A DNA stretch of 44,457 nucleotides from a virus (Duplodnaviria; Heunggongvirae; Uroviricota; Caudoviricetes). Position 1 is the first letter of the stretch. Every line of letters begins with the position of its first letter. Of this stretch, positions 6,366 through 40,892 are shown piece by piece. The stretch is taken from the IMG/VR virus record IMGVR_UViG_2531839331_000012; one strand, written 5' to 3'. Below the pieces are notes generated by a model, which was not told where the DNA came from, ran no database searches, and worked only from the letters and a program-made list of their open reading frames with translations. A program made the translations under genes and the position numbers.

Positions 6366-6370
6366 CCGTT

Positions 6371-8312: not shown

Positions 8313-8339
8313 TGATTCAAATTAACCACGGAGGTTGTT

Positions 8340-8570
8340 ATGAACCCAGCTATCAAAACAGCGATCAATATCGTTGGTTCACAAAAGAAACTGGGCGCTG
8401 CTTGCGAAGTTTCACAGCAGGCCGTCTATAAGTGGCTTCACAACAAAGCAAAGGTATCCCCTGAACATGTCGGCAGCATTGTTACGGCTACTGGGGGAGT
8501 AGTGAAGGCATACCAGATTCGCCCGGATCTTCCGAAGTTGTTTCCACACACCGAAAAGAACGCAGCTTAA
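8340..8570 (+). CDS. cro: Cro-like repressor (Cro/YdaS-family HTH)
   Basis: 76-aa ORF divergent from repressor gene, strong SD; position and size. Confidence 0.75.
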   Translation: MNPAIKTAINIVGSQKKLGAACEVSQQAVYKWLHNKAKVSPEHVGSIVTATGGVVKAYQIRPDLPKLFPHTEKNAA

Positions 8571-8582
8571 ATTTCCATTTCA

Positions 8583-8595
8583 CGCTCTTTAACAA
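8583..8595 (+). promoter_or_regulatory. boxA-like antitermination element CGCTCTTTAACAA (nutR position)
   Basis: Exact match to the rrn/lambdoid boxA consensus GCTCTTTAACAA; no obvious boxB hairpin follows. Confidence 0.5.
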
Positions 8596-8639
8596 TAAGC
8601 AATCAACTTAACAGTCAATTCAAACTAAAGGAGTCAATT

Positions 8640-9179: not shown

Positions 9180-9265
9180 CAGGTTCAGAAATGGCGAAAG
9201 CCGGTCTGCTGGAACAGAACCGACTTTCAGGTGCAAATCGTAACACACTCATTGCGGGAGGAATT

Positions 9266-10893: not shown

Positions 10894-11192
10894 CGGGCAA
10901 AGAGGCAATTATTCATTACCTGGGGACTCATAAGAAATTCTGTGCGCAGGACGTTGCCGCGGTAACAGGCGCAACGGTAACCAGCATAAATCAGGCTGCG
11001 GCTAAAATGGCGCGGGCAGGAATCCTGGTCGTTGATGGTAAGGTCTGGCGAACGGTGTATTATCGGTTCGCTACCAGAGAAGAATGGGAAGGAAAGGTGA
11101 GCACGAATTTGATTTTTAAGGAGTGTCGCCAGAGTGCCGCGATGAAACGGGTATTGAGGGTATATAAAAGAACATCAATGGGTACACAATGA
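10890..11192 (+). CDS. ren: Ren (Rex exclusion protein)
   Basis: 100-aa ORF matching lambda Ren over most of its length. Confidence 0.9.
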   Translation: MTGKEAIIHYLGTHKKFCAQDVAAVTGATVTSINQAAAKMARAGILVVDGKVWRTVYYRFATREEWEGKVSTNLIFKECRQSAAMKRVLRVYKRTSMGTQ

Positions 11193-11259
11193 TGAAACAG
11201 GTGAGTTGAGTTCAAACTGTAGTACAATTCTCTCCAGTTTGAACAGGAAAGAATATGCT

Positions 11260-11592
11260 ATGAATCCTTATATTTATCTTGGTGGTGCAATACTTGCAGA
11301 GGTCATTGGTACAACCTTAATGAAGTTTTCAGAAGGTTTTACACGGTTATGGCCATCTGTTGGTACAATTATTTGTTATTGTGCATCATTCTGGTTATTA
11401 GCTCAGACGCTGGCTTATATTCCTACAGGGATTGCTTATGCTATCTGGTCAGGAGTCGGTATTGTCCTGATTAGCTTACTATCATGGGGATTTTTCGGCC
11501 AACGGTTGGACCTGCCAGCCATTATAGGCATGATGTTGATTTGTGCCGGTGTGTTGGTTATTAATTTATTGTCACGAAGCACACCACATTAA
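11260..11592 (+). CDS. emrE: Small multidrug resistance (SMR) efflux transporter EmrE
   Basis: 110 aa from ATG 11260; four-TM SMR with conserved Glu14 motif (GGAILAEVIGTTLMK); matches recalled E. coli EmrE. Confidence 0.9.
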   Translation: MNPYIYLGGAILAEVIGTTLMKFSEGFTRLWPSVGTIICYCASFWLLAQTLAYIPTGIAYAIWSGVGIVLISLLSWGFFGQRLDLPAIIGMMLICAGVLVINLLSRSTPH

Positions 11593-11847
11593 AAATAATT
11601 TGTTTTTAAACGACTAAAATATGGAGGCTCGTATATTTATATGGGCCTCGTTTTATGCTTTTTGTTAATGTCTTTAGTTTTTATTCATTCTTTTGTGCTT
11701 TCAAGATTATGGTGTAAGAAAATTGCAATACGATTATTGTTGTATATTCAAGATAATGTGACCTTAATTGTCTTTTTAAATAAAAATTAAACAAAAATCA
11801 TATCTCACCACTAAGGTTTATAAAAGCATACTTTAGCAGGTGTCACC

Positions 11848-13374
11848 ATGAAAAAAGCCATAGCATATATGCGATTTTCATCACCAGGTCAGATGTCTGG
11901 TGATTCATTAAACCGCCAGAGAAGGCTTATTACTGAATGGCTAAAGGTAAATAGTGATTATTACCTTGATACCGTAACGTATGAAGATTTGGGGTTAAGC
12001 GCATTCAATGGAAAGCATGCACAATCAGGAGCTTTTTCGGAATTTTTAGATGCTATAGAACATGGTTATATATTGCCAGGGACTACATTGTTAGTTGAAA
12101 GTCTGGACAGACTTTCAAGAGAAAAAGTCGGTGAAGCGATTGAGCGTCTGAAATTGATTTTGAATCACGGTATTGATGTTATAACTCTTTGCGATAATAC
12201 AGTCTATAATATTGACTCATTGAATGAGCCATATTCATTAATAAAAGCCATACTTATAGCACAAAGGGCAAATGAAGAAAGCGAGATAAAGTCAAGTCGG
12301 GTTAAATTATCATGGAAGAAAAAACGGCAGGATGCACTGGAGTCAGGCACGATTATGACGGCGTCTTGTCCGAGATGGCTCTCATTGGATGACAAAAGAA
12401 CGGCTTTTGTTCCAGACCCCGACAGGGTGAAAACTATTGAGCTAATTTTTAAACTCAGGATGGAAAGGCGCTCATTGAATGCAATAGCCAAGTATTTAAA
12501 TGATCATGCTGTAAAGAATTTCTCAGGAAAAGAAAGTGCATGGGGACCTTCTGTAATTGAAAAATTATTAGCGAATAAAGCTCTGATAGGTATATGCGTA
12601 CCTTCATATCGTGCAAGAGGTAAAGGAATAAGTGAAATCGCTGGCTATTATCCCAGAGTCATATCAGATGATTTGTTTTACGCTGTGCAGGAAATTCGGT
12701 TGGCACCTTTTGGTATTAGCAATAGTAGCAAAAATCCTATGTTGATAAATCTACTTCGAACAGTTATGAAGTGCGAGGCTTGTGGTAATACCATGATTGT
12801 TCATGCGGTATCTGGAAGTTTGCATGGCTATTATGTTTGTCCGATGAGAAGACTGCATCGATGTGACAGGCCATCAATAAAGAGAGATTTGGTTGATTAT
12901 AATATCATTAATGAGTTGCTTTTTAATTGTAGTAAAATCCAACCAGTTGAAAACAAGAAAGATGCTAATGAAACTTTAGAGTTGAAAATTATTGAGCTCC
13001 AGATGAAAATTAATAATTTAATTGCTGCATTATCTGTTGCGCCTGAAGTTACCGCTATAGCAGAAAAAATCAGAGTATTAGATAAGGAATTACGAAGGGC
13101 TTCTGTATCATTAAAAACTTTGAAGAGTAAAGCGGTGAGTTCACTTGGTGATTTTCATGCTATTGACTTAACCAGTAAAAATGGGCGAGAGCTATGTCGT
13201 ACACTTGCCTATAAAACATTCGAAAAAATCATAATCAATACAGATAATAAAACCTGTGATATCTATTTTATGAATGGCATTGTTTTTAAACACTATCCTT
13301 TAATGAAAACAATATCTGCCCAGCAGGCGATAAGTACTCTCAAATATATGGTTGATGGTGAGGTTTATTTTTGA
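11848..13374 (+). CDS. ybcK: Large serine recombinase (DLP12 YbcK-like)
   Basis: 508-aa ORF; N-terminal resolvase-type catalytic domain (YMRFSSPGQ... serine), Cys-rich zinc-ribbon region; AT-rich. Confidence 0.85.
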   Translation: MKKAIAYMRFSSPGQMSGDSLNRQRRLITEWLKVNSDYYLDTVTYEDLGLSAFNGKHAQSGAFSEFLDAIEHGYILPGTTLLVESLDRLSREKVGEAIERLKLILNHGIDVITLCDNTVYNIDSLNEPYSLIKAILIAQRANEESEIKSSRVKLSWKKKRQDALESGTIMTASCPRWLSLDDKRTAFVPDPDRVKTIELIFKLRMERRSLNAIAKYLNDHAVKNFSGKESAWGPSVIEKLLANKALIGICVPSYRARGKGISEIAGYYPRVISDDLFYAVQEIRLAPFGISNSSKNPMLINLLRTVMKCEACGNTMIVHAVSGSLHGYYVCPMRRLHRCDRPSIKRDLVDYNIINELLFNCSKIQPVENKKDANETLELKIIELQMKINNLIAALSVAPEVTAIAEKIRVLDKELRRASVSLKTLKSKAVSSLGDFHAIDLTSKNGRELCRTLAYKTFEKIIINTDNKTCDIYFMNGIVFKHYPLMKTISAQQAISTLKYMVDGEVYF

Positions 13375-17020: not shown

Positions 17021-18103
17021 TTAGAACTGGTAAACCATACCTACAGCAACGATATCATCGGTAGCAACGCCAGATGCTTTCGTGAAATCGCTCTTATCAA
17101 TCAGGTTGATTTTGTAATCAACAAAAGTGGACATATTTTTGTTGAAGTAATAGGTTGCACCTACATCAATATATTCAACCAGGTCCTGATCACCCCACGC
17201 ACCCAAGTCTTTTCCTTTAGATTGCAGGTAAGCAACGGACGGACGCAGACCGAAGTCGAACTGATATTGTGCAACTACTTCGAAGTTTTGTGCTTTGTTG
17301 GCAATATGGTTATTACCAAAAACAGTCATGTTCTGGGTTTCAGAATAGGTGGTAGCCAGATAGATGTTGTTCGCATCATATTTCAGACCAGCTGCCCATA
17401 CTTCAGCATTTTGACCAGATGCATTCAGGCTGTTGTTACCGTAGATAACCTGATTATTAGTGCGGTCAGATTTAGCATAGGTTGCACCTACACCGAATCC
17501 TTCATACTCATAAGTAGTGGAGAAACCGAAACCATCACCATTAGCTTCAGTTACGTCAGTGCGGTCATTTTTACCCTGATACTGAGCAGCAAAGTTCAGA
17601 CCATCAACCAGACCAAAGAAGTCATTGTTACGATAAGTTGCAACACCTGTGGTGCGACCAGTCATGAATACATCTGTTTGGGTCCAGGTATCGCCACCGA
17701 ATTCTGGCAGAACGTCGGTCCATGCACCAATATCGTATGCTACACCGTAGTTACGGCCATAATCGATGGAGCCGTAGTCACCGAATTTCAGGCCAGCGAA
17801 GGCAAGACGGGTTTTATCTTTGGAGGAACCTTGAGATTCAGCGCGGTTGCCTTTGAATTCATATTCCCACTGACCGAAACCAGTCAGTTGATCGTTGATT
17901 TGGGTTTCACCTTTGAAGCCAAGACGGGCATAAGTAGTATCACCATCATCTGCATCATTAGAGGAGAAGTAGTGCTTAGCATTAACTTTCCCGTACAGAT
18001 CCAGCTTGTTACTGTCTTTATTATAAATTTCAGCTGCCTGAGCAGACATCGCCATCAGTACTGATGCAGCTACAGCAGAAATTGCCACTGTTAATTTTTT
18101 CAT
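17021..18103 (-). CDS. nmpC: Outer-membrane porin NmpC (OmpC/OmpF family), prophage moron
   Basis: 360 aa from ATG 18103 with signal peptide [24 protein letters not shown]-terminal Phe; intact here. Confidence 0.9.
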
Positions 18104-21447: not shown

Positions 21448-21967
21448 ATGGAAGTCAACAAAAAGCAGCTGGCTGACATTTTCGGTGCGAGTATCCGTAC
21501 CATTCAGAACTGGCAGGAACAGGGAATGCCCGTTCTGCGAGGCGGTGGCAAGGGTAATGAGGTGCTTTATGACTCTGCCGCCGTCATAAAATGGTATGCC
21601 AAAAGGGATGCTGAAATTGAGAACGAAAAGCTGCGCCGGGAGGTTGAAGAACTGCGGCAGGCCAGCGAGGCAGATCTCCAGCCAGGGACTATTGAGTACG
21701 AACGCCATCGACTTACGCGTGCGCAGGCCGACGCACAGGAACTGAAGAATGCCAGAGACTCCGCTGAAGTGGTGGAAACCGCATTCTGTACTTTCGTGCT
21801 GTCGCGGATCGCAGGTGAAATTGCCAGTATTCTCGACGGGATCCCCCTGTCGGTGCAGCGGCGTTTTCCGGAACTGGAAAACCGACATGTTGATTTCCTG
21901 AAACGGGATATCATCAAAGCCATGAACAAAGCAGCCGCGCTGGATGAACTGATACCGGGGTTGCTGA

Positions 21968-21993
<26 letters not shown>
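21448..21993 (+). CDS. nu1: Terminase small subunit Nu1
   Basis: 181-aa ORF matching recalled lambda Nu1. Confidence 0.97.
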
Positions 21994-25674
<3,681 letters not shown>

Positions 25675-25694
<20 letters not shown>

Positions 25695-26994
25695 TCTCCC
25701 GCATATTGCCAGCATGGCTTTTAATGAGCCGCTGATGCTTGAACCCGCCTATGCGCGGGTTTTCTTTTGTGCGCTTGCAGGCCAGCTTGGGATCAGTCGC
25801 CTGACGGATGCAGTATCCGGCGACAGCCTGACTGCCGGAGAGGCACCCGCGGCGCTGGCGTTATCCGGTGATGATGACGGACCACGACAGGCCCGCAGTT
25901 ATCAGGTCATGAACGGCATCGCCGTGCTGCCGGTGTCCGGTACGCTGGTCAGCCGGACGCGGGCGCTGCAGCCGTATTCGGGAATGACCGGTTACAACGG
26001 CATTATCGCCCGTCTGCAACAGGCTGCCAGCGATCCGATGGTGGACGGCATTCTGCTCGATATGGACACACCGGGCGGGATGGTGGCGGGAGCATTTGAC
26101 TGTGCTGACATCATCGCCCGTGTGCGTGACATAAAGCCGGTATGGGCGCTGGCCAACGACATGAACTGCAGTGCAGGTCAGCTGCTTGCCAGCGCCGCCT
26201 CCCGGCGTCTGGTCACGCAGACCGCCCGGACAGGCTCCATCGGCGTCATGATGGCTCACAGTAATTACGGCGCTGCGCTGGAGAAACAGGGCGTGGAAAT
26301 CACGCTGATTTACAGCGGCAGCCATAAGGTGGATGGCAACCCCTACAGCCATCTACCGGGTGATGTCCGGGAGACACTGCAGTCCCGGATGGATGCAACC
26401 CGCCGGATGTTTGCGCAGAAGGTGTCGGCATATACCGGCCTGTCCGTGCAGGCTGTGCTGGATACCGAGGCTGCAGTGTACAGCGGTCAGGAGGCCATTG
26501 ATGCCGGACTGGCTGATGAACTTGTCAACAGCACCGATGCGATCACCGTTATGCGTGATGCACTGGATGCACGTAAATCCCGTCTCTCAGGAGGGCGAAT
26601 GACCAAAGAGACTCAATCAACAACTGTTTCAGCCACTGCTTCGCAGGCTGACGTTACTGACGTGGTGCAAGCGACGGAGGGCGAAAACGCCAGCGCGGCG
26701 CAGCCGGACGTGAACGCGCAGATCACCGCTGCGGTTGCGGCAGAAAACAGCCGCATTATGGGGATCCTCAACTGTGAGGAGGCTCACGGACGCGAAGAAC
26801 AGGCACGTGTGCTGGCCGAAACCCCCGGTATGACCGTGGAAACGGCCCGCCGCATTCTGGCAGCTGCACCACAGAGTGCACAGGCGCGCAGTGACACTGC
26901 GCTGGATCGTCTGATGCAGGGGGCACCGGCACCACTGGCTGCAGGTAACCCGGCATCTGATGCCGTTAACGATTTGCTGAACACACCAGTGTAA
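25675..26994 (+). CDS. C: Prohead protease/scaffold C (ClpP/SppA-like)
   Basis: 439 aa from GTG 25675; matches recalled lambda gpC. Confidence 0.95.
26389..26994 (+). CDS. nu3: Scaffolding protein Nu3 (in-frame internal start within C)
   Basis: ATG 26389 in C frame (MDATRRMFAQ...), same arrangement as lambda Nu3. Confidence 0.7.
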   Translation: MDATRRMFAQKVSAYTGLSVQAVLDTEAAVYSGQEAIDAGLADELVNSTDAITVMRDALDARKSRLSGGRMTKETQSTTVSATASQADVTDVVQATEGENASAAQPDVNAQITAAVAAENSRIMGILNCEEAHGREEQARVLAETPGMTVETARRILAAAPQSAQARSDTALDRLMQGAPAPLAAGNPASDAVNDLLNTPV

Positions 26995-27003
26995 GGGATG
27001 TTT

Positions 27004-27336
27004 ATGACGAGCAAAGAAACCTTTACCCATTACCAGCCGCTGGGCAACAGTGACCCGGCACATACGGCAACCGCGCCCGGCGGATTGAGTGCGAAAGCGC
27101 CTGCAATGACCCCGCTGATGCCGGATACCTCCACCCGTAAGCTGGTTGCGTGGGATGGCACCACCGACGGTACTGCCGTTGGCATTCTGGCGGTTGATGC
27201 TGACCAGACCAGCACCACGCTGACGTTCTACAAGTCCGGCACGTTCCGTTATGAGGATGTGCTCTGGCCGGAGGCTGCCAGCGACGAGACGAAAAAACGG
27301 ACCGCGTTTGCCGGAACGGCAATCAGCATCGTTTAA
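27004..27336 (+). CDS. D: Head decoration protein D
   Basis: 110 aa from ATG 27004, lambda gpD. Confidence 0.97.
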
Positions 27337-27357
27337 CCTTACCCTTCATCACTAAAG

Positions 27358-27378
27358 GCCGCCTGTGCGGCTTTTTTT
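27358..27378 (+). terminator. Hairpin + T7 between D and E (attenuator/terminator-like)
   Basis: GCCGC-CTGT-GCGGC followed by TTTTTTT. Confidence 0.45.
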
Positions 27379-27391
27379 ACGGGATTTTTTT

Positions 27392-28417
27392 ATGTCGATG
27401 TACACAACCGCCCAGCTGCTGGCGGCAAATGAGCAGAAATTTAAGTTTGATCCGCTGTTTCTGCGTCTCTTTTTCCGTGAGAGCTATCCCTTCACCACGG
27501 AGAAAGTCTATCTCTCACAAATTCCGGGACTGGTAAACATGGCGCTGTACGTTTCGCCGATTGTTTCCGGTGAGGTTATCCGTTCCCGTGGCGGCTCCAC
27601 CTCTGAATTTACGCCGGGATATGTCAAACCCAAGCATGAGGTGAATCCGCAGATGACCCTGCGTCGCCTGCCGGATGAAGATCCGCAGAATCTGGCGGAC
27701 CCGGCTTACCGCCGCCGTCGCATCATCATGCAGAACATGCGAGACGAAGAGCTGGCCATTGCTCAGGTCGAAGAGATGCAGGCAGTTTCTGCTGTGCTTA
27801 AGGGCAAATACACCATGACCGGTGAAGCCTTCGATCCGGTTGAGGTGGATATGGGCCGCAGTGCGGCGAACAACATCACACAGTCCGGTGGTACGGAGTG
27901 GAGCAAGCGTGACAAGTCCACGTATGACCCGACCGACGATATCGAAGCCTATGCGCTGAACGCCAGCGGCGTGGTGAATATCATCGTGTTTGATCCGAAA
28001 GGCTGGGCGCTGTTCCGTTCCTTCAAAGCCGTCAAGGAGAAGCTGGATACCCGTCGCGGCTCTCATTCCGAGCTGGAGACAGCGGTAAAAGACCTGGGCG
28101 AAGCGGTGTCCTATAAGGGGATGTATGGCGATACGGCGATCGTCGTGTATTCCGGACAGTACGTGGAAAACGACGTCAAAAAGAACTTCCTGCCGGACAA
28201 CACGATGGTGCTGGGGAACACTCAGGCACGCGGTCTGCGCACCTATGGCTGCATTCAGGATGCGGACGCACAGCGCGAAGGTATTAACGCCTCTGCCCGC
28301 TACCCGAAAAACTGGGTGACCACCGGCGATCCGGCGCGTGAGTTCACCATGATTCAGTCAGCACCGCTGATGCTGCTGGCTGATCCTGATGCGTTCGTGT
28401 CCGTACAACTGGCGTAA
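27392..28417 (+). CDS. E: Major capsid protein E
   Basis: 341 aa from ATG 27392, lambda gpE. Confidence 0.97.
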   Translation: MSMYTTAQLLAANEQKFKFDPLFLRLFFRESYPFTTEKVYLSQIPGLVNMALYVSPIVSGEVIRSRGGSTSEFTPGYVKPKHEVNPQMTLRRLPDEDPQNLADPAYRRRRIIMQNMRDEELAIAQVEEMQAVSAVLKGKYTMTGEAFDPVEVDMGRSAANNITQSGGTEWSKRDKSTYDPTDDIEAYALNASGVVNIIVFDPKGWALFRSFKAVKEKLDTRRGSHSELETAVKDLGEAVSYKGMYGDTAIVVYSGQYVENDVKKNFLPDNTMVLGNTQARGLRTYGCIQDADAQREGINASARYPKNWVTTGDPAREFTMIQSAPLMLLADPDAFVSVQLA

Positions 28418-28419
28418 TC

Positions 28420-28444
28420 ATGGCCCTTCGGGGCCATTTTCTCT
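28420..28444 (+). terminator. Hairpin + T-run after E (ATGGCCC-TTCG-GGGCCAT TTTT)
   Basis: Read directly. Confidence 0.45.
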
Positions 28445-28458
28445 CTGTGGAGGAGTCC

Positions 28459-28854
28459 ATGACGAAAGATGAACTGATTGCCCGTCTTCAGGTGCTGGGT
28501 GAGCAACTGAACCGTGATGTCAGCCTGACGGGGACGAAAGAAGAACTGGTGCTCCGTGTGGCAGAGCTGGAAGAGGAGCTTGATGACACGGATGACGCTG
28601 CCGGTCAGGACACATCTGTCAGCCCGGAAAATGCGCTGACCGGACATGAAAATGAGGTGGTATCAGCGCAGCCGGATACCGTGATTGATACGGCTGCTCT
28701 GGTCACGGTCGTGGCACTGGTGACGCTGCATACTGATGCACTTCACGCCACGCGGGATGAGCCTGTGGCATTTGTGCTGCCGGGAACGGCGTTTCGTGTC
28801 TCTGCCGGTGTGGCAGCCGAAATGACAGAACATGGCCTGGCCAGAATGCAATAA
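28459..28854 (+). CDS. FI: DNA-packaging/head assembly protein FI
   Basis: 131 aa from ATG 28459, lambda gpFI. Confidence 0.93.
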   Translation: MTKDELIARLQVLGEQLNRDVSLTGTKEELVLRVAELEEELDDTDDAAGQDTSVSPENALTGHENEVVSAQPDTVIDTAALVTVVALVTLHTDALHATRDEPVAFVLPGTAFRVSAGVAAEMTEHGLARMQ

Positions 28855-28865
28855 CGGGAGGCGCT

Positions 28866-29219
28866 GTGGCTGATTCCGATAACCTGTTCGATGCTGCCAT
28901 TGCCCGCGCCGATGAAACGATACGCGGGTACATGGGAACGTCAGCCACCATGACATCCGGTGAGCTGTCCGGTGCTGTGATACGTGGTGTTTTTGATGAC
29001 CCTGAAAATATCAGCTATGCCGGACAGGGGGTGCGCGTTGAAGGCTCCAGCCCGTCCCTGTTTGTCCGGACTGATGATGTGCGGCAGCTGCGGCGTGGAG
29101 ACACACTGACCATCGGCGAGGAAAACTTCTGGGTGGACCGGATTTCGCCGGATGATGGCGGAAGCTGTCATCTCTGGCTTGGGCGGGGCGTACCGCCTGC
29201 CGTTAACCGTCGCCGCTGA
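28866..29219 (+). CDS. FII: Head-tail connector protein FII
   Basis: 117 aa, GTG start, lambda gpFII. Confidence 0.93.
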   Translation: MADSDNLFDAAIARADETIRGYMGTSATMTSGELSGAVIRGVFDDPENISYAGQGVRVEGSSPSLFVRTDDVRQLRRGDTLTIGEENFWVDRISPDDGGSCHLWLGRGVPPAVNRRR

Positions 29220-29230
29220 AGGGGGGATGT

Positions 29231-29809
29231 ATGGCCATAAAAGGTCTTGAGCAGGCCGTTGAAAACCTCAGTCGTATCAGCAAAACGGCGGTGCCCGGTG
29301 CGTCAGCAATGGCCATTAACCGCGTTGCGTCATCCGCGATATCGCAGTCTGCGTCACAGGTTGCCCGTGAGACAAGGGTACGCCGGAAACTGGTAAAGGA
29401 AAGGGCCAGGCTGAAAAGGGCCACGGTTAAAAATCCGCAGGCCAGAATCAGGGTTAACCGGGGGGATTTGCCCGTAATCAAGCTGGGTAACGCGCGGGTT
29501 GTCCTGTCCCGACGCAGGCGTCGTAAAAAGGGGCAGCGTTCATCCCTGAAAGGTGGCGGCAGCGTGCTTGTGGTGGGAAACCGTCGTATTCCCGGCGCGT
29601 TTATTCAGCAACTGAAAAATGGCCGCTGGCATGTCATGCAGCGTGTGGCCGGGAAAAACCGTTACCCCATTGATGTGGTGAAAATCCCGATGGCGGTGCC
29701 GCTGACCACGGCGTTTAAACAGAATATTGAGCGGATACGGCGTGAGCGTCTTCCGAAAGAGCTGGGCTATGCGCTGCAGCATCAACTGAGGATGGTAATA
29801 AAGCGATGA
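29231..29809 (+). CDS. Z: Tail completion protein Z
   Basis: 192 aa, lambda gpZ. Confidence 0.95.
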   Translation: MAIKGLEQAVENLSRISKTAVPGASAMAINRVASSAISQSASQVARETRVRRKLVKERARLKRATVKNPQARIRVNRGDLPVIKLGNARVVLSRRRRRKKGQRSSLKGGGSVLVVGNRRIPGAFIQQLKNGRWHVMQRVAGKNRYPIDVVKIPMAVPLTTAFKQNIERIRRERLPKELGYALQHQLRMVIKR

Positions 29810-30201
29810 AACATACTGAACTCCGTGCAGCCGTACTGGATGCACTGGAGAAGCATGACACCGGGGCGACGTTTTTTGATGGTCGCCCCGCTGTTTTTGA
29901 TGAGGCGGATTTTCCGGCAGTTGCCGTTTATCTCACCGGCGCTGAATACACGGGCGAAGAGCTGGACAGCGATACCTGGCAGGCGGAGCTGCATATCGAA
30001 GTTTTCCTGCCTGCTCAGGTGCCGGATTCAGAGCTGGATGCGTGGATGGAGTCCCGGATTTATCCGGTGATGAGCGATATCCCGGCACCGTCAGATTTGA
30101 TCACCAGTATGGTGGCCAGTGGCTATGACTACCGGCGCGACGATGATGCGGGCCTGTGGAGTTCTGCCGATCTGACTTATGTCATTACCTATGAAATGTG
30201 A
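29806..30201 (+). CDS. U: Tail terminator protein U
   Basis: 131 aa, lambda gpU. Confidence 0.95.
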
Positions 30202-30208
30202 GGACGAT

Positions 30209-30949
30209 ATGCCTGTACCAAATCCAGCAATACCGGTGAAAGGTGCCGGAACCACCCTGTGGGTTTATAACGGGAGCGGCGACCCTTATGCGAACCCGCT
30301 TTCAGACGTTGACTGGTCGCGTCTGGCTAAAGTTAAAGACCTGACGCCCGGCGAACTGACCGCTGAGTCCTATGACGACAGTTATCTCGATGATGAAGAT
30401 GCGGACTGGACCGCGACCGGGCAGGGGCAGAAATCTGCCGGAGATACCAGCTTCACGCTGGCGTGGATGCCCGGAGAGCAGGGGCAGCAGGCGCTGCTGG
30501 CGTGGTTTAATGAAGGGGATACCCGTGCCTATAAAATCCGCTTCCCGAACGGCACGGTCGATGTGTTCCGTGGCTGGGTCAGCAGTATCGGTAAGGCGGT
30601 GACGGCGAAGGAAGTGATCACCCGTACGGTGAAGGTCACCAATGTGGGCCGTCCGTCAATGGCAGAAGATCGCAGTACGGTGACGGCGGCAACCGGCATG
30701 ACCGTGACGCCTGCCAGCACTTCGGTGGTGAAAGGGCAGAGCACCACGCTGACCGTGGCATTCCAGCCGGAAGGCGCAACCGACAAGAGCTTCCGTGCGG
30801 TGTCTGCGGATAAAACAAAAGCCACCGTGTCGGTCAGTGGTATGACCATCACCGTGAAAGGTGTTGCTGCAGGCAAGGTCAACATTCCGGTTGTATCCGG
30901 TAATGGTGAACTTGCTGTGGTTGCAGAAATCACCGTCACCGACAGTTAA
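30209..30949 (+). CDS. V: Major tail tube protein V
   Basis: 246 aa from ATG 30209, lambda gpV incl. C-terminal Ig-like domain. Confidence 0.95.
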
Positions 30950-30964
30950 TCCGGAGAGTCAGCG

Positions 30965-31387
30965 ATGTTCCTGAAAACCGAATCATTTGAATATAACGGT
31001 GTGAGCGTCACGCTTTCTGAACTGTCAGCCCTGCAGCGAATTGAGCATCTCGCCCTGCTGAAACGACAGGCAGAACAGGCGGGATCCAGTCTCAATCGAC
31101 AGGGGAGCGTGGAAGATCTCGTCAGAACCGGTGCTTTTCTGGTGGCGATGTCCCTGTGGCATAGCCATCCGCAGAAGACAAAGATGCCGTCCATGAATGA
31201 AGCCGTTAAACAAATTGAGCAGGAAGTGCTTACCACCTGGCCCACAGAGGCAATTTCTCATGCTGAAAACGTGGTGTACCGGCTGTCCGGTATGTATGAG
31301 TTTGTGGTGAATGATGCTCCTGAACAGACAGAGGACGCCGGGCCTGCAGAGCCTGTTTCTGCGGGAAAGTGTTCGATGGTGAGCTGA
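30965..31387 (+). CDS. G: Tail assembly chaperone G
   Basis: 140 aa, lambda gpG. Confidence 0.95.
   Translation: MFLKTESFEYNGVSVTLSELSALQRIEHLALLKRQAEQAGSSLNRQGSVEDLVRTGAFLVAMSLWHSHPQKTKMPSMNEAVKQIEQEVLTTWPTEAISHAENVVYRLSGMYEFVVNDAPEQTEDAGPAEPVSAGKCSMVS
31363..31369 (+). promoter_or_regulatory. Programmed -1 ribosomal frameshift slippery heptamer G GGA AAG (G to G-T fusion)
   Basis: GGGAAAG at 3' end of G with T ORF in -1 frame, as in lambda. Confidence 0.85.
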
Positions 31388-31803
31388 GTTTTGCCCTGAA
31401 ACTGGCGCGAGAGATGGGGCGACCCGACTGGCGTGCCATGCTTGCCGGGATGTCATCCACGGAGTATGCCGACTGGCACCGCTTTTACAGTACCCATTAT
31501 TTTCATGATGTTCTGCTGGATATGCACTTTTCCGGGCTGACGTACACCGTGCTCAGCCTGTTTTTCAGCGATCCGGATATGCATCCGCTGGATTTCAGTC
31601 TGCTGAACCGGCGTGAGGCTGACGAAGAGCCTGAAGATGATGTGCTGATGCAGAAAGCGGCAGGGCTTGCCGGAGGCGTCCGCTTTGGCCCGGACGGGAA
31701 TGAAGTTATCCCCGCTTCCCCGGATGTGGCGGACATGACGGAGGATGACGTAATGCTGATGACAGTATCAGAAGGGATCGCAGGAGGAGTCCGGTATGGC
31801 TGA
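31369..31803 (+). CDS. T: Tail assembly chaperone T (expressed as G-T frameshift fusion)
   Basis: 144-aa -1-frame ORF overlapping G end; lambda gpT. Confidence 0.9.
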   Translation: MFDGELSFALKLAREMGRPDWRAMLAGMSSTEYADWHRFYSTHYFHDVLLDMHFSGLTYTVLSLFFSDPDMHPLDFSLLNRREADEEPEDDVLMQKAAGLAGGVRFGPDGNEVIPASPDVADMTEDDVMLMTVSEGIAGGVRYG

Positions 31804-34375
31804 ACCGGTAGGCGATCTGGTCGTTGATTTAAGTCTGGATGCGGCCAGATTTGACGAGCAGATGGCCAGAGTCAGGCGTCATTTTTCCGGTACGGAAACT
31901 GATGCGAAAAAAACAGCGGCAGTCGTTGAACAGTCGCTGAGCCGACAGGCGCTGGCTGCACAGAAAGCGGGGATTTCCGTCGGGCAGTATAAAGCCGCCA
32001 TGCGTATGCTGCCTGCACAGTTCACCGACGTGGCCACGCAGCTTGCAGGCGGGCAAAGCCCGTGGCTGATCCTGCTGCAACAGGGGGGTCAGGTTAAGGA
32101 CTCCTTCGGCGGGATGATCCCCATGTTCAGGGGGCTTGCCGGTGCGATCACCCTGCCGATGGTGGGGGCCACCTCGCTGGCGGTGGCGACCGGTGCGCTG
32201 GCGTATGCCTGGTATCAGGGCAACTCAACCCTGTCCGATTTCAACAAAACGCTGGTCCTTTCCGGCAATCAGGCGGGACTGACGGCAGATCGTATGCTGG
32301 TCCTGTCCAGAGCCGGGCAGGCGGCAGGGCTGACGTTTAACCAGACCAGCGAGTCACTGACGGCGCTGGTGAATGCCGGTGTGCGTGGTGGTGAGCAGTT
32401 TGAGGCGATCAGCCAGAGTGTGGCGCGTTTCTCCTCTGCATCCGGCGTGGAGGTGGACAAGGTCGCTGAAGCCTTCGGGAAGCTGACCACAGACCCGACG
32501 TCGGGACTGACAGCGATGGCACGTCAGTTCCATAACGTGACGGCGGAGCAGATTGCGTATGTTGCTCAGTTGCAGCGTTCCGGAGATGAAGCCGGGGCAT
32601 TGCAGGCGGCGAACGAGGCCGCAACGAAAGGGTTTGATGACCAGACCCGCCGCCTGAAAGAGAACATGGGCACGCTGGAGACCTGGGCAGACAGGACAGC
32701 ACGGGCATTCAAATCCATGTGGGATTCGGTGCTGGATATTGGTCGCCCGGACACTGCCCAGGGAATGCTGGAGAAAGCAGAAAAGGCTTTTGATGAGGCG
32801 GACAAAAAATGGCAGTGGTATCAGAGCCGGAGCCACCGGCGCGGTAAAACCTCAGCATTTCTTGCCAATCTCCGGGGAGCATGGGAGGACAGAGCGAATG
32901 CGCAACTTGGGCTTTCAGCCGCCACGTTGCAGGCCGATCTTGAAAAGGCCAGAGAGATGGCAGCAAAGGACTGGGCCGAGTCTGAGGCATCACGGCTGAA
33001 ATATACCGAAGAGGCGCAGAAGGCTTACGAACGGCTGCAGACGCCGCTGGAGAAATATACCGCCCGTCAGGAAGAACTGAACAAGGCACTGAAAGACGGG
33101 AAAATCCTGCAGGCGGATTACAACACGCTGATGGCGGCGGCGAAAAAGGATTATGAAGCGACGCTGAAAAAGCCGAAACAGTCCGGCGTGAAGGTGTCTG
33201 CGGGCGATCGTCAGGAAGACAGTGCTCATGCTGCCCTGCTGATGCTTCAGACAGAACTCCGGACGCTGGAGAAGCATGCCGGAGCGAATGAGAAAATCAG
33301 CCAGCAGCGCCGGGATTTGTGGAAGGCAGAAAGTCAGTTCGCGGTACTGGAGGAGGCGGCGCAACGTCGTCAGTTGTCTGCACAGGAGAAATCCCTGCTG
33401 GCGCATAAAGATGAGACGCTGGAGTACAAACGCCAGCTGGCTGCACTTGGCGACAAGGTTACGTATCAGGAGCGCCTGAACGCGCTGGCGCAGCAGGCGG
33501 ATAAATTCGCACAGCAGCAACGGGCAAAACGGGCCGCCATTGATGCGAAAAGCCGGGGGCTGACTGACCGGCAGGCAGAACGGGAAGCCACGGAACAGCG
33601 CCTGAAGGAACAGTATGGCGATAATCCGCTGGCGCTGAATAACGTCATGTCAGAGCAGAAAAAGACCTGGGCGGCTGAAGACCAGCTTCGCGGGAGCTGG
33701 ATGGCAGGCCTGAAGTCCGGCTGGAGTGAGTGGGAAGAGAGCGCCACGGACAGTATGTCGCAGGTTAAAAGTGCAGCCACGCAGACCTTTGATGGTATTG
33801 CACAGAATATGGCGGCGATGCTGACCGGCAGTGAGCAGAACTGGCGCAGCTTCACCCGTTCCGTGCTGTCCATGATGACAGAAATTCTGCTTAAGCAGGC
33901 AATGGTGGGGATTGTCGGGAGTATCGGCAGCGCCATTGGCGGTGCTGCCAGTGGTGGAGCATCCGCGTCAGGCGGTACAGCCATTCAGGCCGCTGCGGCG
34001 AAATTCCATTTTGCGACCGGGGGATTTACGGGAACCGGCGGCAAATATGAGCCAGCGGGGATTGTTCACCGTGGTGAATTTGTCTTCACGAAGGAGGCAA
34101 CCAGCCGGATTGGTGTCGGCAACCTGTACCGCCTGATGCGGGGCTATGCGGAAGGTGGTTATGTGGGCGGTGCCGGAAGTCCGGCGCAGATGCGGCGGGC
34201 TGAAGGCATTAATTTTAATCAGAACAATCACGTGGTGATTCAGAACGACGGTACGAATGGTCTGCCAGGTCCACAGATGATGAAGGCAGTGTATGACATG
34301 GCCCGCAAGGGTGCCCGTGATGAAATTCAGACACAGATGCGTGATGGTGGCCTGTTCTCCGGAGGTGGACGATGA
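31796..34375 (+). CDS. H: Tail tape-measure protein H
   Basis: 859 aa; lambda gpH (853 aa) with small in-frame length difference. Confidence 0.95.
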   Translation: MAEPVGDLVVDLSLDAARFDEQMARVRRHFSGTETDAKKTAAVVEQSLSRQALAAQKAGISVGQYKAAMRMLPAQFTDVATQLAGGQSPWLILLQQGGQVKDSFGGMIPMFRGLAGAITLPMVGATSLAVATGALAYAWYQGNSTLSDFNKTLVLSGNQAGLTADRMLVLSRAGQAAGLTFNQTSESLTALVNAGVRGGEQFEAISQSVARFSSASGVEVDKVAEAFGKLTTDPTSGLTAMARQFHNVTAEQIAYVAQLQRSGDEAGALQAANEAATKGFDDQTRRLKENMGTLETWADRTARAFKSMWDSVLDIGRPDTAQGMLEKAEKAFDEADKKWQWYQSRSHRRGKTSAFLANLRGAWEDRANAQLGLSAATLQADLEKAREMAAKDWAESEASRLKYTEEAQKAYERLQTPLEKYTARQEELNKALKDGKILQADYNTLMAAAKKDYEATLKKPKQSGVKVSAGDRQEDSAHAALLMLQTELRTLEKHAGANEKISQQRRDLWKAESQFAVLEEAAQRRQLSAQEKSLLAHKDETLEYKRQLAALGDKVTYQERLNALAQQADKFAQQQRAKRAAIDAKSRGLTDRQAEREATEQRLKEQYGDNPLALNNVMSEQKKTWAAEDQLRGSWMAGLKSGWSEWEESATDSMSQVKSAATQTFDGIAQNMAAMLTGSEQNWRSFTRSVLSMMTEILLKQAMVGIVGSIGSAIGGAASGGASASGGTAIQAAAAKFHFATGGFTGTGGKYEPAGIVHRGEFVFTKEATSRIGVGNLYRLMRGYAEGGYVGGAGSPAQMRRAEGINFNQNNHVVIQNDGTNGLPGPQMMKAVYDMARKGARDEIQTQMRDGGLFSGGGR

Positions 34376-34701
34376 AAACCTTCCGCTGGAAAGTGAAACC
34401 CGGTATGGATGTGGCTTCGGGCCCTTCTGTAAGAAAGGTGCGCTTTGGTGATGGCTATTCCCAGCGAGCGCCTGCCGGGCTGAATGCCAACCTGAAAACG
34501 TACAGCGTGACGCTTTCTGTCCCCCGTGAGGAGGCCACGGTACTGGAGTCGTTTCTGGAAGAGCACGGGGGCTGGAAAGCCTTTCTGTGGACGCCGCCTT
34601 ATGAGTGGCGGCAGATAAAGGTGACCTGCGCAAAATGGTCGTCGCGGGTCAGTATGCTGCGTGTTGAGTTCAGCGCAGAGTTTGAACAGGTGGTGAACTG
34701 A
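34372..34701 (+). CDS. M: Tail tip protein M
   Basis: 109 aa, lambda gpM. Confidence 0.95.
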   Translation: MKTFRWKVKPGMDVASGPSVRKVRFGDGYSQRAPAGLNANLKTYSVTLSVPREEATVLESFLEEHGGWKAFLWTPPYEWRQIKVTCAKWSSRVSMLRVEFSAEFEQVVN

Positions 34702-35399
34702 TGCAGGATATCCGGCAGGAAACACTGAATGAATGCACCCGTGCGGAGCAGTCGGCCAGCGTGGTGCTCTGGGAAATCGACCTGACAGAGGTCGGTGGAG
34801 AACGTTATTTTTTCTGTAATGAGCAGAACGAAAAAGGTGAGCCGGTCACCTGGCAGGGGCGACAGTATCAGCCGTATCCCATTCAGGGGAGCGGTTTTGA
34901 ACTGAATGGCAAAGGCACCAGTATGCGCCCCACGCTGACGGTTTCTAACCTGTACGGTATGGTCACCGGGATGGCGGAAGATATGCAGAGTCTGGTCGGC
35001 GGAACGGTGGTCCGGCGTAAGGTTTACGCCCGTTTTCTGGATGCGGTGAACTTCGTCAACGGAAACAGTTACGCCGATCCGGAGCAGGAGGTGATCAGCC
35101 GCTGGCGCATTGAGCAGTGCAGCGAACTGAGCGCGGTGAGTGCCTCCTTTGTACTGTCCACGCCGACGGAAACGGATGGCGCTGTTTTTCCGGGACGTAT
35201 CATGCTGGCCAACACCTGCACCTGGACCTATCGCGGTGACGAGTGCGGTTATAGCGGTCCGGCTGTCGCGGATGAATATGACCAGCCAACGTCCGATATC
35301 ACGAAGGATAAATGCAGCAAATGCCTGAGCGGTTGTAAGTTCCGCAATAACGTCGGCAACTTTGGCGGCTTCCTTTCCATTAACAAACTTTCGCAGTAA
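34701..35399 (+). CDS. L: Tail tip protein L
   Basis: 232 aa, lambda gpL. Confidence 0.95.
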   Translation: MQDIRQETLNECTRAEQSASVVLWEIDLTEVGGERYFFCNEQNEKGEPVTWQGRQYQPYPIQGSGFELNGKGTSMRPTLTVSNLYGMVTGMAEDMQSLVGGTVVRRKVYARFLDAVNFVNGNSYADPEQEVISRWRIEQCSELSAVSASFVLSTPTETDGAVFPGRIMLANTCTWTYRGDECGYSGPAVADEYDQPTSDITKDKCSKCLSGCKFRNNVGNFGGFLSINKLSQ

Positions 35400-35404
35400 A
35401 TCCC

Positions 35405-36148
35405 ATGACACAGACAGAATCAGCGATTCTGGCGCACGCCCGGCGATGTGCGCCAGCGGAGTCGTGCGGCTTCGTGGTAAGCACGCCGGAGGGGGAAAGA
35501 TATTTTCCCTGCGTGAATATCTCCGGTGAGCCGGAGGCGTATTTCCGTATGTCGCCGGAAGACTGGCTGCAGGCAGAAATGCAGGGTGAGATTGTGGCGC
35601 TGGTCCACAGCCACCCCGGTGGTCTGCCCTGGCTGAGTGAGGCCGACCGGCGGCTGCAGGTGCAGAGTGATTTGCCGTGGTGGCTGGTCTGCCGGGGGAC
35701 GATTCATAAGTTCCGCTGTGTGCCGCATCTCACCGGGCGGCGCTTTGAGCACGGTGTGACGGACTGTTACACACTGTTCCGGGATGCTTATCATCTGGCG
35801 GGGATTGAGATGCCGGACTTTTATCGTGAGGATGACTGGTGGCGTAACGGCCAGAATCTCTATCTGGATAATCTGGAGGCGACGGGGCTGTATCAGGTGC
35901 CGTTGTCAGCGGCACAGCCGGGCGATGTGCTGCTGTGCTGTTTTGGTTCATCAGTGCCGAATCACGCCGCAATTTACTGCGGCGACGGCGAGCTGCTGCA
36001 CCATATTCCTGAACAACTGAGCAAACGAGAGAGGTACACCGACAAATGGCAGCGACGCACACACTCCCTCTGGCGTCACCGGGCATGGCGCGCATCTGCC
36101 TTTACGGGGATTTACAACGATTTGGTCGCCGCATCGACCTTCGTGTGA
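35405..36148 (+). CDS. K: Tail tip assembly protein K (JAB/MPN + NlpC/P60 domains); ORF extends 48 codons upstream of the classical lambda start (35549)
   Basis: 247-aa ORF; JAMM-like motif (E...HSHPGGLPWLSEAD) begins within the upstream extension; C-terminal part equals lambda gpK. Confidence 0.85.
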   Translation: MTQTESAILAHARRCAPAESCGFVVSTPEGERYFPCVNISGEPEAYFRMSPEDWLQAEMQGEIVALVHSHPGGLPWLSEADRRLQVQSDLPWWLVCRGTIHKFRCVPHLTGRRFEHGVTDCYTLFRDAYHLAGIEMPDFYREDDWWRNGQNLYLDNLEATGLYQVPLSAAQPGDVLLCCFGSSVPNHAAIYCGDGELLHHIPEQLSKRERYTDKWQRRTHSLWRHRAWRASAFTGIYNDLVAASTFV

Positions 36149-36717
36149 AAACGGGGGCTGAAGCCATCCGGGCACTGGCCACACAGCTCCCGGCGTTTCG
36201 TCAGAAACTGAGCGACGGCTGGTATCAGGTACGGATTGCCGGGCGGGACGTCAGCACGTCCGGGTTAACGGCGCAGTTACATGAGACTCTGCCTGATGGC
36301 GCTGTGATTCATATTGTTCCCAGAGTCGCCGGGGCCAAGTCAGGTGGCGTATTCCAGATTGTCCTGGGGGCTGCCGCCATTGCCGGATCATTCTTTACCG
36401 CCGGAGCCACCCTTGCAGCATGGGGGGCAGCCATTGGGACCGGTGGTATGACCGGCATCCTGTTTTCTCTCGGTGCCAGTATGGTGCTCGGTGGTGTGGC
36501 GCAGATGCTGGCACCGAAAGCCAGAACTCCCCGTACACAGACAACGGATAACGGTAAGCAGAACACCTATTTCTCCTCACTGGATAACATGGTTGCCCAG
36601 GGCAATGTTCTGCCTGTTCTGTACGGGGAAATGCGCGTGGGGTCTCGCGTGGTTTCTCAGGAGATCAGCACGGCAGACGAAGGGGACGGTGGTCAGGTTG
36701 TGGTGATTGGTCGCTGA
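36046..36717 (+). CDS. I: Tail tip assembly protein I
   Basis: 223 aa, lambda gpI; overlaps K in another frame. Confidence 0.95.
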   Translation: MAATHTLPLASPGMARICLYGDLQRFGRRIDLRVKTGAEAIRALATQLPAFRQKLSDGWYQVRIAGRDVSTSGLTAQLHETLPDGAVIHIVPRVAGAKSGGVFQIVLGAAAIAGSFFTAGATLAAWGAAIGTGGMTGILFSLGASMVLGGVAQMLAPKARTPRTQTTDNGKQNTYFSSLDNMVAQGNVLPVLYGEMRVGSRVVSQEISTADEGDGGQVVVIGR

Positions 36718-36777
36718 TGCAAAATGTTTTATGTGAAACCGCCTGCGGGCGGTTTTGTCATTTATGGAGCGTGAGGA

Positions 36778-39700
36778 ATGGGTAAAGGCAGCAGTAAGGG
36801 GCATACCCCGCGCGAAGCGAAGGACAACCTGAAGTCCACGCAGCTGCTGAGTGTGATCGATGCCATCAGCGAAGGGCCGGTTGAAGGTCCGGTGGATGGA
36901 TTAAAAAGCGTGCTGCTGAACAGTACGCCGGTGCTGGACACTGAGGGGAATACCAACATCTCCGGTGTCACGGTGGTGTTCCGTGCCGGTGAGCAGGAGC
37001 AGACACCGCCGGAGGGGTTTGAATCCTCCGGCTCCGAGACGGTGCTGGGTACGGAAGTGAAATATGACACGCCGATCACCCGCACCATTACGTCTGCAAA
37101 CATCGACCGTCTGCGCTTTACCTTCGGTGTGCAGGCACTGGTGGAAACCACCTCAAAGGGGGACCGGAATCCGTCGGAAGTCCGCCTGCTGGTTCAGATA
37201 CAGCGTAACGGTGGCTGGGTGACGGAAAAAGACATCACCATTAAGGGCAAAACCACCTCGCAGTATCTGGCCTCGGTGGTGGTGGATAACCTGCCGCCGC
37301 GCCCGTTTAATATCCGGATGCGCAGGATGACGCCGGACAGCACCACAGACCAGCTGCAGAACAAAACGCTCTGGTCGTCATACACCGAAATCATCGATGT
37401 GAAACAGTGCTACCCGAACACGGCACTGGTCGGCGTGCAGGTGGATTCGGAGCAGTTCGGCAGCCAGCAGGTGAGCCGTAATTATCATCTGCGCGGGCGC
37501 ATTCTGCAGGTGCCGTCGAACTATAACCCGCAGACGCGGCAATACAGCGGTATCTGGGACGGAACGTTTAAGCCAGCATACAGCAACAACATGGCCTGGT
37601 GTCTGTGGGATATGCTGACCCATCCCGCTACGGCATGGGGAAACGTCTTGGTGCGCGGATGTGAAAATGGGCGCTGTATGTCATCGGCCAGATGCGACAG
37701 TCGTGCCGGACGGTTTGGCGGCACGGAGCCGCGCATCACCTGTAATGCGTACCTGACCACACAGCGCAAGGCGTGGGATGTGCTCAGTGATTTCTGCTCG
37801 CGATGCGCTGTATGCCGGTATGGAACGGGCAGACGCTGAGTTCGTGCAGGACCGACCTCGATAAGGTGTGGACCTATAACCGCAGTAATGTGGTGATGCC
37901 GGATGATGGGCGCCGTTCCGCTACAGCTTCAGCGCCCTGAAGGACCGCCATAATGCCGTTGAGGTGAACTGGATTGACCCGAACAACGGCTGGGAGACGG
38001 CGACAGAGCTTGTGGAGGACACGCAGGCCATTGCCCGTTACGGTCGTAACGTCACGAAGATGGATGCTTTTGGCTGTACCAGCCGGGGGCAGGCACACCG
38101 CGCCGGGCTGTGGCTGATTAAAACGGAACTGCTGGAAACGCAGACCGTGGACTTCAGCGTGGGTGCGGAAGGGCTTCGCCATGTACCGGGGGATGTCATT
38201 GAAATCTGCGATGATGACTATGCCGGTATCAGCACCGGTGGTCGCGTGCTGGCGGTGAACAGCCAGACCCGGACGCTGACGCTCGACCGTGAAATCACGC
38301 TGCCATCCTCCGGTACCACGCTGATAAGCCTGGTTGACGGAAGTGGCAATCCGGTCAGCGTGGAGGTCCAGTCCGTCACCGACGGCGTGAAGGTGAAAGT
38401 GAGCCGGGTTCCTGACGGCGTTGCCGGATACAGCGTGTGGGGGCTGAAGCTGCCGACGCTGCGCCAGCGCCTGTTCCGCTGTGTGAGTATCCGTGAGAAC
38501 GACGACGGCACGTATGCCATCACGCCGTGCAGCATGTACCGAAAAGAAGCCATCGTGGATAACGGGGCGCACTTTGACGGACCGAGCGGCACGGTGAATG
38601 GGTCACGCCGCCGCGTGCAGCACTGACGCCGAAGTCACCGCAGACAGCGGGGAATACAGGTGCTGGCGCTGGGACACGCCGAAGGTGGTGAAGGGGTGAG
38701 CTTCCTGCTTCGCCTGACCGTGGCAGCGGATGACGGCAGTGAGCGGCTGGTCAGCACGGCCCGGACGACGGAAACCACATACCGCTTCACGCAACTGGCG
38801 CTGGGGAACTACAGGCTGACAGTCCGGGCGGTAAATGCGTGGGGACAGCAGGGCGATCCGGCATCGGTATCGTTCCGGATTGCCGCACCGGCAGCGCCGT
38901 CGCGGATTGAGCTGACGCCGGGCTATTTTCAGATAACCGCCACGCCGCATCTTGCGGTTTATGATCCGACGGTACAGTTTGAGTTCTGGTTCTCGGAAAA
39001 GCGGATTGCGGATATCAGGCAGGTTGAAACCACAGCCCGCTATCTTGGTACGGCGCTGTACTGGATAGCCGCCAGTATCAATATCAAACCGGGCCATGAT
39101 TATTATTTTTACGTTCGCAGTGTGAACACCGTTGGCAAATCGGCATTCGTGGAGGCTGTCGGTCAGCCGAGTGATGATGCATCAGGCTATCTGGATTTTT
39201 TCAAAGGCGAGATAGGGAAAACCCATCTGGCTCAGGAGCTGTGGACGCAGATTGATAACGGTCAGCTTGCGCCTGACCTGGCTGAAATCAGGACGTCCAT
39301 TACGGATGTCAGCAATGAAATCACACAGACCGTCAATAAGAAACTGGAAGACCAGAGTGCAGCGATCCAGCAGATACAGAAGGTTCAGGTTGATACAAAT
39401 AATAACCTGAACAGCATGTGGGCTGTGAAGCTGCAGCAGATGCAGGACGGACGCCTTTATATTGCGGGTATCGGTGCCGGTATTGAGAACACCCCTGACG
39501 GCATGCAGAGTCAGGTGCTGCTGGCGGCAGACAGGATTGCGATGATTAATCCTGCGAATGGCAACACAAAGCCGATGTTTGTTGGTCAGGGCGATCAGAT
39601 ATTCATGAATGAAGTGTTCCTGAAACGCCTGACGGCTCCCACCATTACCAGCGGCGGTAATCCTCCGGCATTTTCCCTGACACCGGACGGAGAGCTGACG

Positions 39701-40228
39701 GCGAAAAATGCCGATATCAGTGGCAGTGTGAATGCGAACTCCGGGACGCTCAACAACGTCACGATTAACGAGAACTGTCGGGTTCTGGGAAAACTGTCCG
39801 CCAACCAGATTGAAGGCGATCTCGTTAAAACAGTGGGTAAAGCTTTCCCGCGGGACTCCCGGGCACCGGAACGGTGGCCATCAGGGACCATTACCGTCAG
39901 GATTTATGACGATCAGCCGTTTGACCGGCAGATTGTTATTCCGGCGGTGGCATTCAGCGGTGCTAAACATGAGAGAGAGCATACTGATATTTACTCCTCA
40001 TGCCGCCTGATAGTGAAGAAAAATGGTGCTGAAATTTATAACCGTACCGCGCTGGATAATACGCTGATTTACAGTGGTGTTATTGATATGCCAGCTGGTC
40101 ACGGCCACATGACGCTGGAGTTTTCGGTGTCAGCATGGCTGGTAAATGACTGGTATCCCACAGCAAGTATCAGCGATTTGCTGGTTGTGGTGATGAAGAA
40201 AGCCACCGCAGGCATCAGTATCAGCTGA
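36778..40228 (+). pseudogene. J: Central tail fibre / host-specificity protein J, disrupted by multiple small frameshifts (three ORF segments 36778-37839, 37964-38626, 38660-40228) and with a non-lambda C-terminal receptor-binding end
   Basis: Segments align consecutively to recalled lambda gpJ; short out-of-frame stretches at about 37650-37720, 37790-37960 and 38590-38700 look like clustered 1-2-bp deletions. Confidence 0.8.
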
Positions 40229-40295: not shown

Positions 40296-40892
40296 ATGCG
40301 TAAAGTTTGTGCAGCCATTTTGTCCGCAGCCATTTGTCTGGCCGTATCCGGTGCGCCTGCATGGGCGTCTGAACATCAGTCCACGCTGAGCGCGGGGTAT
40401 CTTCATGCCTCGACGAACGTTCCCGGCAGCGATGATCTGAACGGGATTAACGTGAAATACCGTTATGAGTTTACGGACACACTGGGGCTGGTGACGTCTT
40501 CAGCTATGCAGGAGACAAGAATCGCCAGCTACCCGTTACAGCGATACCCGCTGGCATGAAGATTCCGTGCGTAACCGCTGGTTCAGCGTGATGGCGGGGC
40601 CGTCTGTACGCGTGAATGAATGGTTCAGCGCGTATGCGATGGCGGGGTGGCTTACAGCCGTGTGTCGACTTTCTCCGGGGATTATCTCCGCGTAACTGAC
40701 AACAAGGGAAAAACGCACGATGTGCTGACCGGAAGTGATGACGGTCGCCACAGCAACACGTCTCTGGCGTGGGGGGCTGGCGTGCAGTTTAACCCGACCG
40801 AATCCGTGGCCATTGATGTCGCTTATGAAGGCTCCGGCAGTGGTGACTGGCGCACTGACGGTTTCATCGTGGGTGTCGGTTATAAGTTCTGA
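40296..40892 (+). pseudogene. lom: Lom outer-membrane protein (Ail/Lom family), frameshifted
   Basis: N-terminal (40296-40559) and C-terminal (40620-40892) ORFs both match recalled lambda Lom; reading frame lost for about 30 codons in between. Confidence 0.8.

Follow-up and report, generated by a model that had tools for sequence, protein, structure and literature searches.

The frameshifts that interrupt the tail tip gene J of the prophage analysed here are very probably an artefact of the consensus, created when paralogous J copies were assembled together, and not a property of the prophage itself; this reading rests on comparison of the sequence with natural J alleles. Compared with intact alleles, J had lost 29 bases and gained none, and the losses coincided with sites at which J copies differ from each other (P between 1e-12 and 1e-18). 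Below, the window denotes the whole stretch of DNA that was analysed (44,457 nucleotides). All positions refer to the window, and the coordinates of the features are collected in Table 1.

The J gene and its lost bases

The window corresponds to the final 44.5 kb of a 200,696-bp draft contig (AQAF01000034.1, assembly GCA_000358165.2), the source strain of which is Escherichia coli P0302293.9. It harbours a lambdoid prophage integrated beside ybhC, adjoining the lambda attachment site. The contig ends about 4 kb past J, within an IS3-family element, and the J lesions are located about 7 kb from this end. The presence of the IS3-family pair at the contig end marks the region as bounded by repeats and hard to assemble. 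Two proteins deposited at NCBI (ENE51571.1 and ENE51572.1) exactly match the frameshifted J fragments; therefore, the losses were already present in the GenBank record and did not arise during preparation of the window.

J (also gpJ or TipJ) is a lambda-type tail tip and host-specificity gene. In the deposited sequence it is represented by three ORFs in two frames, namely 36778-37839 (353 aa), 37964-38626 (220 aa) and 38660-40228 (522 aa), and one unbroken J frame of about 1130-1165 codons is absent from it. Across the three fragments, Pfam domains follow each other in the order FNIII-A_GpJ, Phage-tail_3, Ig_J, Ig_J_second, Phage_Tail_Tip and Ig_GpJ_C; these J domains scored above the curated cut-offs, and precomputed Pfam matches agreed with them. 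The tail module showed the synteny H-M-L-K-I-J-lom-stf, both when the prophage proteins of Ceylon31 were mapped to the window by tblastn and in gene lists, and the J region shared 96-97% nucleotide identity with thousands of annotated gpJ genes of E. coli prophages. When the 29 bases were put back, a J ORF of 3480 nt was obtained, encoding 1159 aa with no internal stop. At the protein level, the repaired J is 98.6% identical to that of phage PhiR55_1, and most of the changes that separate it from intact alleles are synonymous (for example 45 synonymous to 14 non-synonymous).

The first J loss was found at 37626, after codon 283, and the last one at about 38693-38696. This agrees well with an earlier note on this DNA, in which about 290 intact codons and a damaged range of 37640-38700 had been reported. 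The lesions were not spread over about 1 kb, as the note had it; instead, they formed two tight clusters (A and B) lying 613 bp apart, with no indel in the 613 undamaged bases between them. The clustering of the losses far exceeds chance. As the note stated, single and double bases were lost, but their placement in short runs did not hold: at most five of the 29 losses can be placed in runs of at least three identical bases, and this against some reference alleles only. The listing of indels and their homopolymer context that it had proposed, made here against intact J alleles, comprises 29 losses with few of them in homopolymers. Most of the lost bases were isolated or in 2-base runs, and insertions were absent. 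All four bases were among those lost, none was substituted, and approximately 26 of the 29 losses affected third codon positions (P about 4.5e-10).

Regarding the reading frame, the note had described J as repeatedly leaving and re-entering it. The true J frame indeed hops at the losses, from frame 1 to frame 3 and then to frame 2, but the starting frame is regained only briefly, within cluster A. Throughout the 613 nt between the clusters J remains shifted, and its last 1536 nt are in a frame other than that of the start codon. About 55 other genes of the prophage map full-length and in a single frame, and lom alone is also broken.

Table 1. Coordinates of J, its lost bases and the downstream features in the window
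Feature	Position	Strand	Basis
J (gpJ, TipJ), fragmented	36778-40228	+	ORFs, Pfam, synteny
Undamaged N-terminal 283 codons of J, frame 1, allele X	36778-37625	+	Allele comparison
First non-X base, 23 bp before the first lost base	37603	+	Comparison with allele X
Cluster A, 14 single-base losses	37626-37910	+	Alignment to natural J alleles
Individual losses of cluster A, each before the position given	37626, 37655, 37663, 37665, 37692, 37693, 37698, 37703, 37714, 37800, 37840, 37858, 37860, 37910	+	Alignment to natural J alleles
Indel-free middle stretch of J, frame 2; possibly blended haplotype	37911-38522	+	Allele comparison (weak)
Cluster B, 13 events removing 15 bases, including two 2-bp losses (near 38581 and 38666)	38523-38696	+	Alignment to natural J alleles
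Undamaged C-terminal 511 codons of J and stop, frame 2, including the receptor-binding domain	38697-40228	+	ORFs, Pfam, frame tracking
lom (Ail/Lom outer-membrane protein), three single-base losses (40499, about 40530, 40647)	40296-40892	+	Alignment, Pfam
IS3-family transposase pair, cut by the contig end	43460-43966; 43942-44457	+	Pfam HTH_Tnp_1/HTH_28, then HTH_21 and rve

The losses in lom split this gene into ORFs of 87 aa and 90 aa, and Pfam Ail_Lom matches both halves. All three of them occupy third codon positions, two of the three coincide with variable columns of a 10-allele panel, and they are the same artefact as that in J.

Two further parts of the window deserve mention in their own right. 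In the segment 40951-44457, the side tail fibre gene stops at 43434, giving 825-827 aa compared with 1132 aa in relatives. It ends 25 bp before the IS3-family pair, and its exact protein is unique to AQAF01000034.1; the truncation may stem from a genuine IS insertion or from a join made into a repeat during assembly. At the other end, the early and lysis region (1-21000) is DLP12-like and carries emrE, ybcK, ybcN, ninE, rusA, quuD, a porin gene, essD and rrrD. The window is 100% identical to Ceylon31 (NZ_CP076270.1) over 1-12000 and on to about 16.5 kb. The porin allele (17024-18103) is only 90.7% identical in protein to that of Ceylon31, and the segment 19644-20897 is replaced relative to Ceylon31, with no iss or bor homologue. 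This pattern looks like ordinary lambdoid mosaicism.

Natural variation of J at the lost positions

The lost positions were compared with a panel of 83 intact J alleles, 80 of which came from IMG/VR and three from annotated genomes and phages. Using an exact dynamic programme that runs over all possible deletion placements, joint placement assigned 28 of the 29 losses to columns variable in this panel (14 of 14 in cluster A, 14 of 15 in cluster B). A count of 29/29, obtained with each deletion placed alone, was rejected in favour of the joint result. The sole loss on an invariant column belongs to cluster B and is one of two adjacent bases missing from a GCGCGC repeat. When an equal number of deletions was distributed randomly, about 9-10 per cluster fell on invariant columns, and the lowest count among 200 trials was 4.

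In an alignment-free test, the window segment of cluster A (316 nt) proved to be equal to six natural haplotypes minus the identical 14 columns, and all 14 columns are variable among those six haplotypes. The segment of cluster B can be obtained from five natural haplotypes by deletions alone, and neither cluster contains a substitution relative to several natural alleles. Three allele types of the panel (L005, L001 and L031) jointly differ at exactly the 14 columns lost in cluster A. For L001 and L005, each of the 11 differences in the 330-column zone coincides with one of the 14 lost columns (hypergeometric P = 3.4e-18). A single natural partner accounting for all 14 columns of cluster A was not found in these comparisons, the best one accounting for no more than 12 of them. 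E. coli G3 has a second J copy, which was tried as a partner and rejected, as it covers only about half of the losses in cluster A and a small part of those in cluster B. Therefore, three alleles or one unsampled allele would be required, and on the sequence comparison the three types named above would suffice for cluster A. A synthetic partner that differs from X at all 14 columns had a best natural match of 99.4% (2 mismatches).

The haplotype of the window changes where cluster A begins. Upstream, the segment 21796-31800 and the prophage of E. coli G3 (CP195958.1) share 99.97% identity, with one to two more mismatches up to 37602, and comparison of 21796-37602 (15.8 kb) with the near-isogenic prophage L088 revealed no indels and about five substitutions. 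There are no mismatches to the panel allele L005 in 36778-37575, and position 37603 is the only difference from both L088 and L005 in 36778-37625. These two represent the near-isogenic allele X. Upstream of 37603, the X state is present in the window at 22 of the 22 sites that separate the two J copies of G3; after cluster A, the window is 2-3% diverged from X. From this change of haplotype, it can be inferred that cluster A is an overlap zone of two or more haplotypes.

In the G3 and Ceylon31 relatives of the prophage, J is uninterrupted and has 1165 codons, and among seven relatives with an identical tape-measure protein none carries any of these deletions across the J region, with an intact J gene call in six of the seven. 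The exact 353-aa and 220-aa fragments were detected on one contig only in a search of approximately 15 billion proteins. A 72-mer that covers eight of the losses had no match in IMG/VR or in species-representative genomes. The confinement of the losses to one contig, without their being reproduced in related prophages, counts for an artefact.

Some observations on these relatives concern other genes. In relative L087 (GCA_040812555.1), no J gene call is listed, though its J DNA equals that of L088 in length. The same record contains one inserted G at 14386, by which tail assembly gene I is divided into two calls. L087 was considered as a case of a usual sequencing frameshift and rejected as uninformative, since this base in gene I is the only one inserted. 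Compared with four otherwise identical prophages, the window carries private substitutions at 23053, 23830 and 31104, which may reflect either genuine SNPs of the lineage or additional errors of the consensus. The SNP at 31104 makes the protein of tail chaperone G (gpG) unique in the whole protein collection; this uniqueness stems from one private SNP, and there is no second anomaly.

As for J as a whole, its mosaic cost under a copying model was 26.5, compared with a median of 20 for natural alleles in a leave-one-out setting, which is within the natural range and gives no sign of chimerism outside the clusters. Nearest-neighbour panel distances of the left, middle and right J segments revealed nothing unusual. 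For the middle segment (37916-38518), the best natural match among about 13,000 J copies was 98.2% identical, and three natural controls yielded 100%, 99.0% and 100%; judged against these three controls only, the middle segment may perhaps be a blended consensus settled by vote. Finally, in the 90%-identity cluster of the 353-aa fragment, most of the listed members are partial J proteins of 274-335 aa from other E. coli drafts. Contigs of short-read assemblies thus often end at J codons of about 274-335. As cluster A starts at this place too, a repeat boundary common to them may be suspected here.

A model of co-assembled J copies and its alternatives

Most E. coli genomes harbour several nearly identical versions of J and lom, with each lambdoid prophage bringing its own. 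For J, the median number of places is 3 per E. coli genome; in the near-isogenic G3 there are two. According to the model proposed here, reads of two or three co-resident J (and lom) alleles, the partner alleles being resident in the genome of P0302293.9, would have been stacked in the zones 37603-37910, 38523-38696 and 40499-40647. A column in which the stacked reads disagreed would have received no consensus base, leading to a 1-bp deletion for each difference between the copies. Disagreeing columns made up of reads from different repeat copies are a documented signature of mis-assembly (PMC2397507).

The isolate series comprises multiple colonies per patient, sequenced as 100-bp paired reads on HiSeq 2000 at >200x and assembled with Celera Assembler, a program of the overlap-layout-consensus type, according to the papers describing it (PMC4462620, PMC5469772); SPAdes was run by the authors as well (PMC5469772). 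The sibling colony P0302293_3 (run SRR446963) is given there as AQAB00000000. The use of Celera Assembler for P0302293.9 is taken from the series, with the rest of which this strain was presumably assembled alike.

The dropping of bases could have proceeded in two ways. Substitutions might have been aligned as staggered columns of gap and base, which were then called as gaps, or ambiguous calls might have been removed before submission. The latter, i.e. stripping of N or IUPAC symbols from disagreeing columns after assembly, is a possible but rather unlikely route, and its probability forms a share of that given to co-assembly as a whole and does not add to it. Every disagreeing column is gone, including those at which one of three alleles differs, which favours ambiguity removal and fits the removal of any ambiguity better than a majority vote; in addition, the window is free of any non-ACGT symbol. 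On the other hand, the 2-bp loss in the GCGCGC repeat favours the staggered-gap step, since it is not obtainable by removing variable columns and is fitted better by a gapped multi-alignment. Stripping by whoever prepared the window is contradicted by the deposited NCBI proteins, which are already frameshifted.

Prophage tail genes do decay, and it might be supposed that J is a genuine pseudogene of a defective prophage, in which the 29 J deletions and the three in lom accumulated by mutation. The frameshifted proteins sit in the deposited annotation, and the downstream side tail fibre gene is truncated beside an IS. Nevertheless, we consider such decay highly improbable. It would target neither the sites that vary between alleles (28/29) nor third codon positions, and insertions, larger deletions and nonsense changes would be expected, none of which is present. 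After repair, the changes are mostly synonymous, with no pattern of relaxed constraint. Moreover, the remaining genes (about 55) are intact, the 15.8 kb upstream are 99.97% identical to an intact prophage, and the lesions occur in no other assembly searched. The earlier note had likewise favoured error over slow pseudogenisation, and the position of the losses on variable columns, their third-position bias and the lack of other damage bear it out. The note is also right that the central tail fibre would be lost if the lesions were real, a point that is moot given the artefact.

The cause that the note had suggested, a low-quality stretch, has to be abandoned, as the losses track the variation between alleles and cluster A starts at the haplotype switch. 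Plain error at the level of reads, i.e. random or homopolymer-linked dropouts in a stretch of low coverage or low quality, is very unlikely to have generated the pattern. What speaks for it is that the genome is a draft, that the losses are 1-bp deletions lying close together and that the J lesion region is GC-rich (about 58-62%). However, such errors should be random relative to polymorphism between alleles, whereas the losses coincide with it. Indels of both signs would also be expected, while insertions are missing here, and few losses lie in homopolymers. In an Illumina series of >200x, consensus indels caused by random error are very rare, and both clusters are substitution-free against several natural alleles.

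The bases might also have been removed in the cell. If diverged J copies recombined, a heteroduplex of a few hundred bases could form, and aberrant repair could take out one nucleotide per mismatch, so that each site differing between the parents would end up deleted. We regard this as barely credible; if true, recombination of diverged sequences would have a mutational outcome that has not been described before. Diversity-generating retroelements mutagenize their targets by substitution at adenines. Mutagenesis of this type was rejected, as all four bases were lost here and none was substituted.

Consequences and comparison with known systems

If J copies were assembled together, as we propose, J and lom of this prophage are most likely ordinary and intact in reality. 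Hence, neither a defective tail nor loss of host range nor decay of the prophage should be inferred from the record, and the proteins ENE51571.1 and ENE51572.1 are artefactual fragments. A rule for quality control can be derived: frameshifts that fall on paralogue-variable and mostly third codon positions, at a haplotype switch near a contig end, point to a blended consensus of a repeat. Such a diagnosis is possible from the sequence and an allele panel, without the reads. Pseudogene counts and calls of prophage intactness based on older overlap-consensus drafts may be inflated.

The closest counterpart among assembly errors is represented by mis-assembled repeats with columns of correlated SNPs (Phillippy, Schatz & Pop 2008, PMC2397507), in which anomalies appear where copies differ, as in the window. 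Shared features also include a multi-copy element, a contig end and an IS nearby, and a switch of haplotype. In contrast to that signature, the disagreeing columns of the window are missing and manifest themselves as frameshifts, instead of being resolved to one allele; no description of this dropped-column outcome was found in the mis-assembly literature examined. As for the gene itself, the domain order of J and its place in the tail module are those of gpJ (TipJ) of bacteriophage lambda. Unlike lambda gpJ, the deposited J is not one ORF, and it becomes an ordinary member of 1159 aa once the 29 bases are restored. The intact prophages of G3 and Ceylon31 share with the window the integration site beside ybhC and the gene order, and they differ from it in that J (1165 aa) and lom (199 aa) are uninterrupted and the side tail fibre is full-length.
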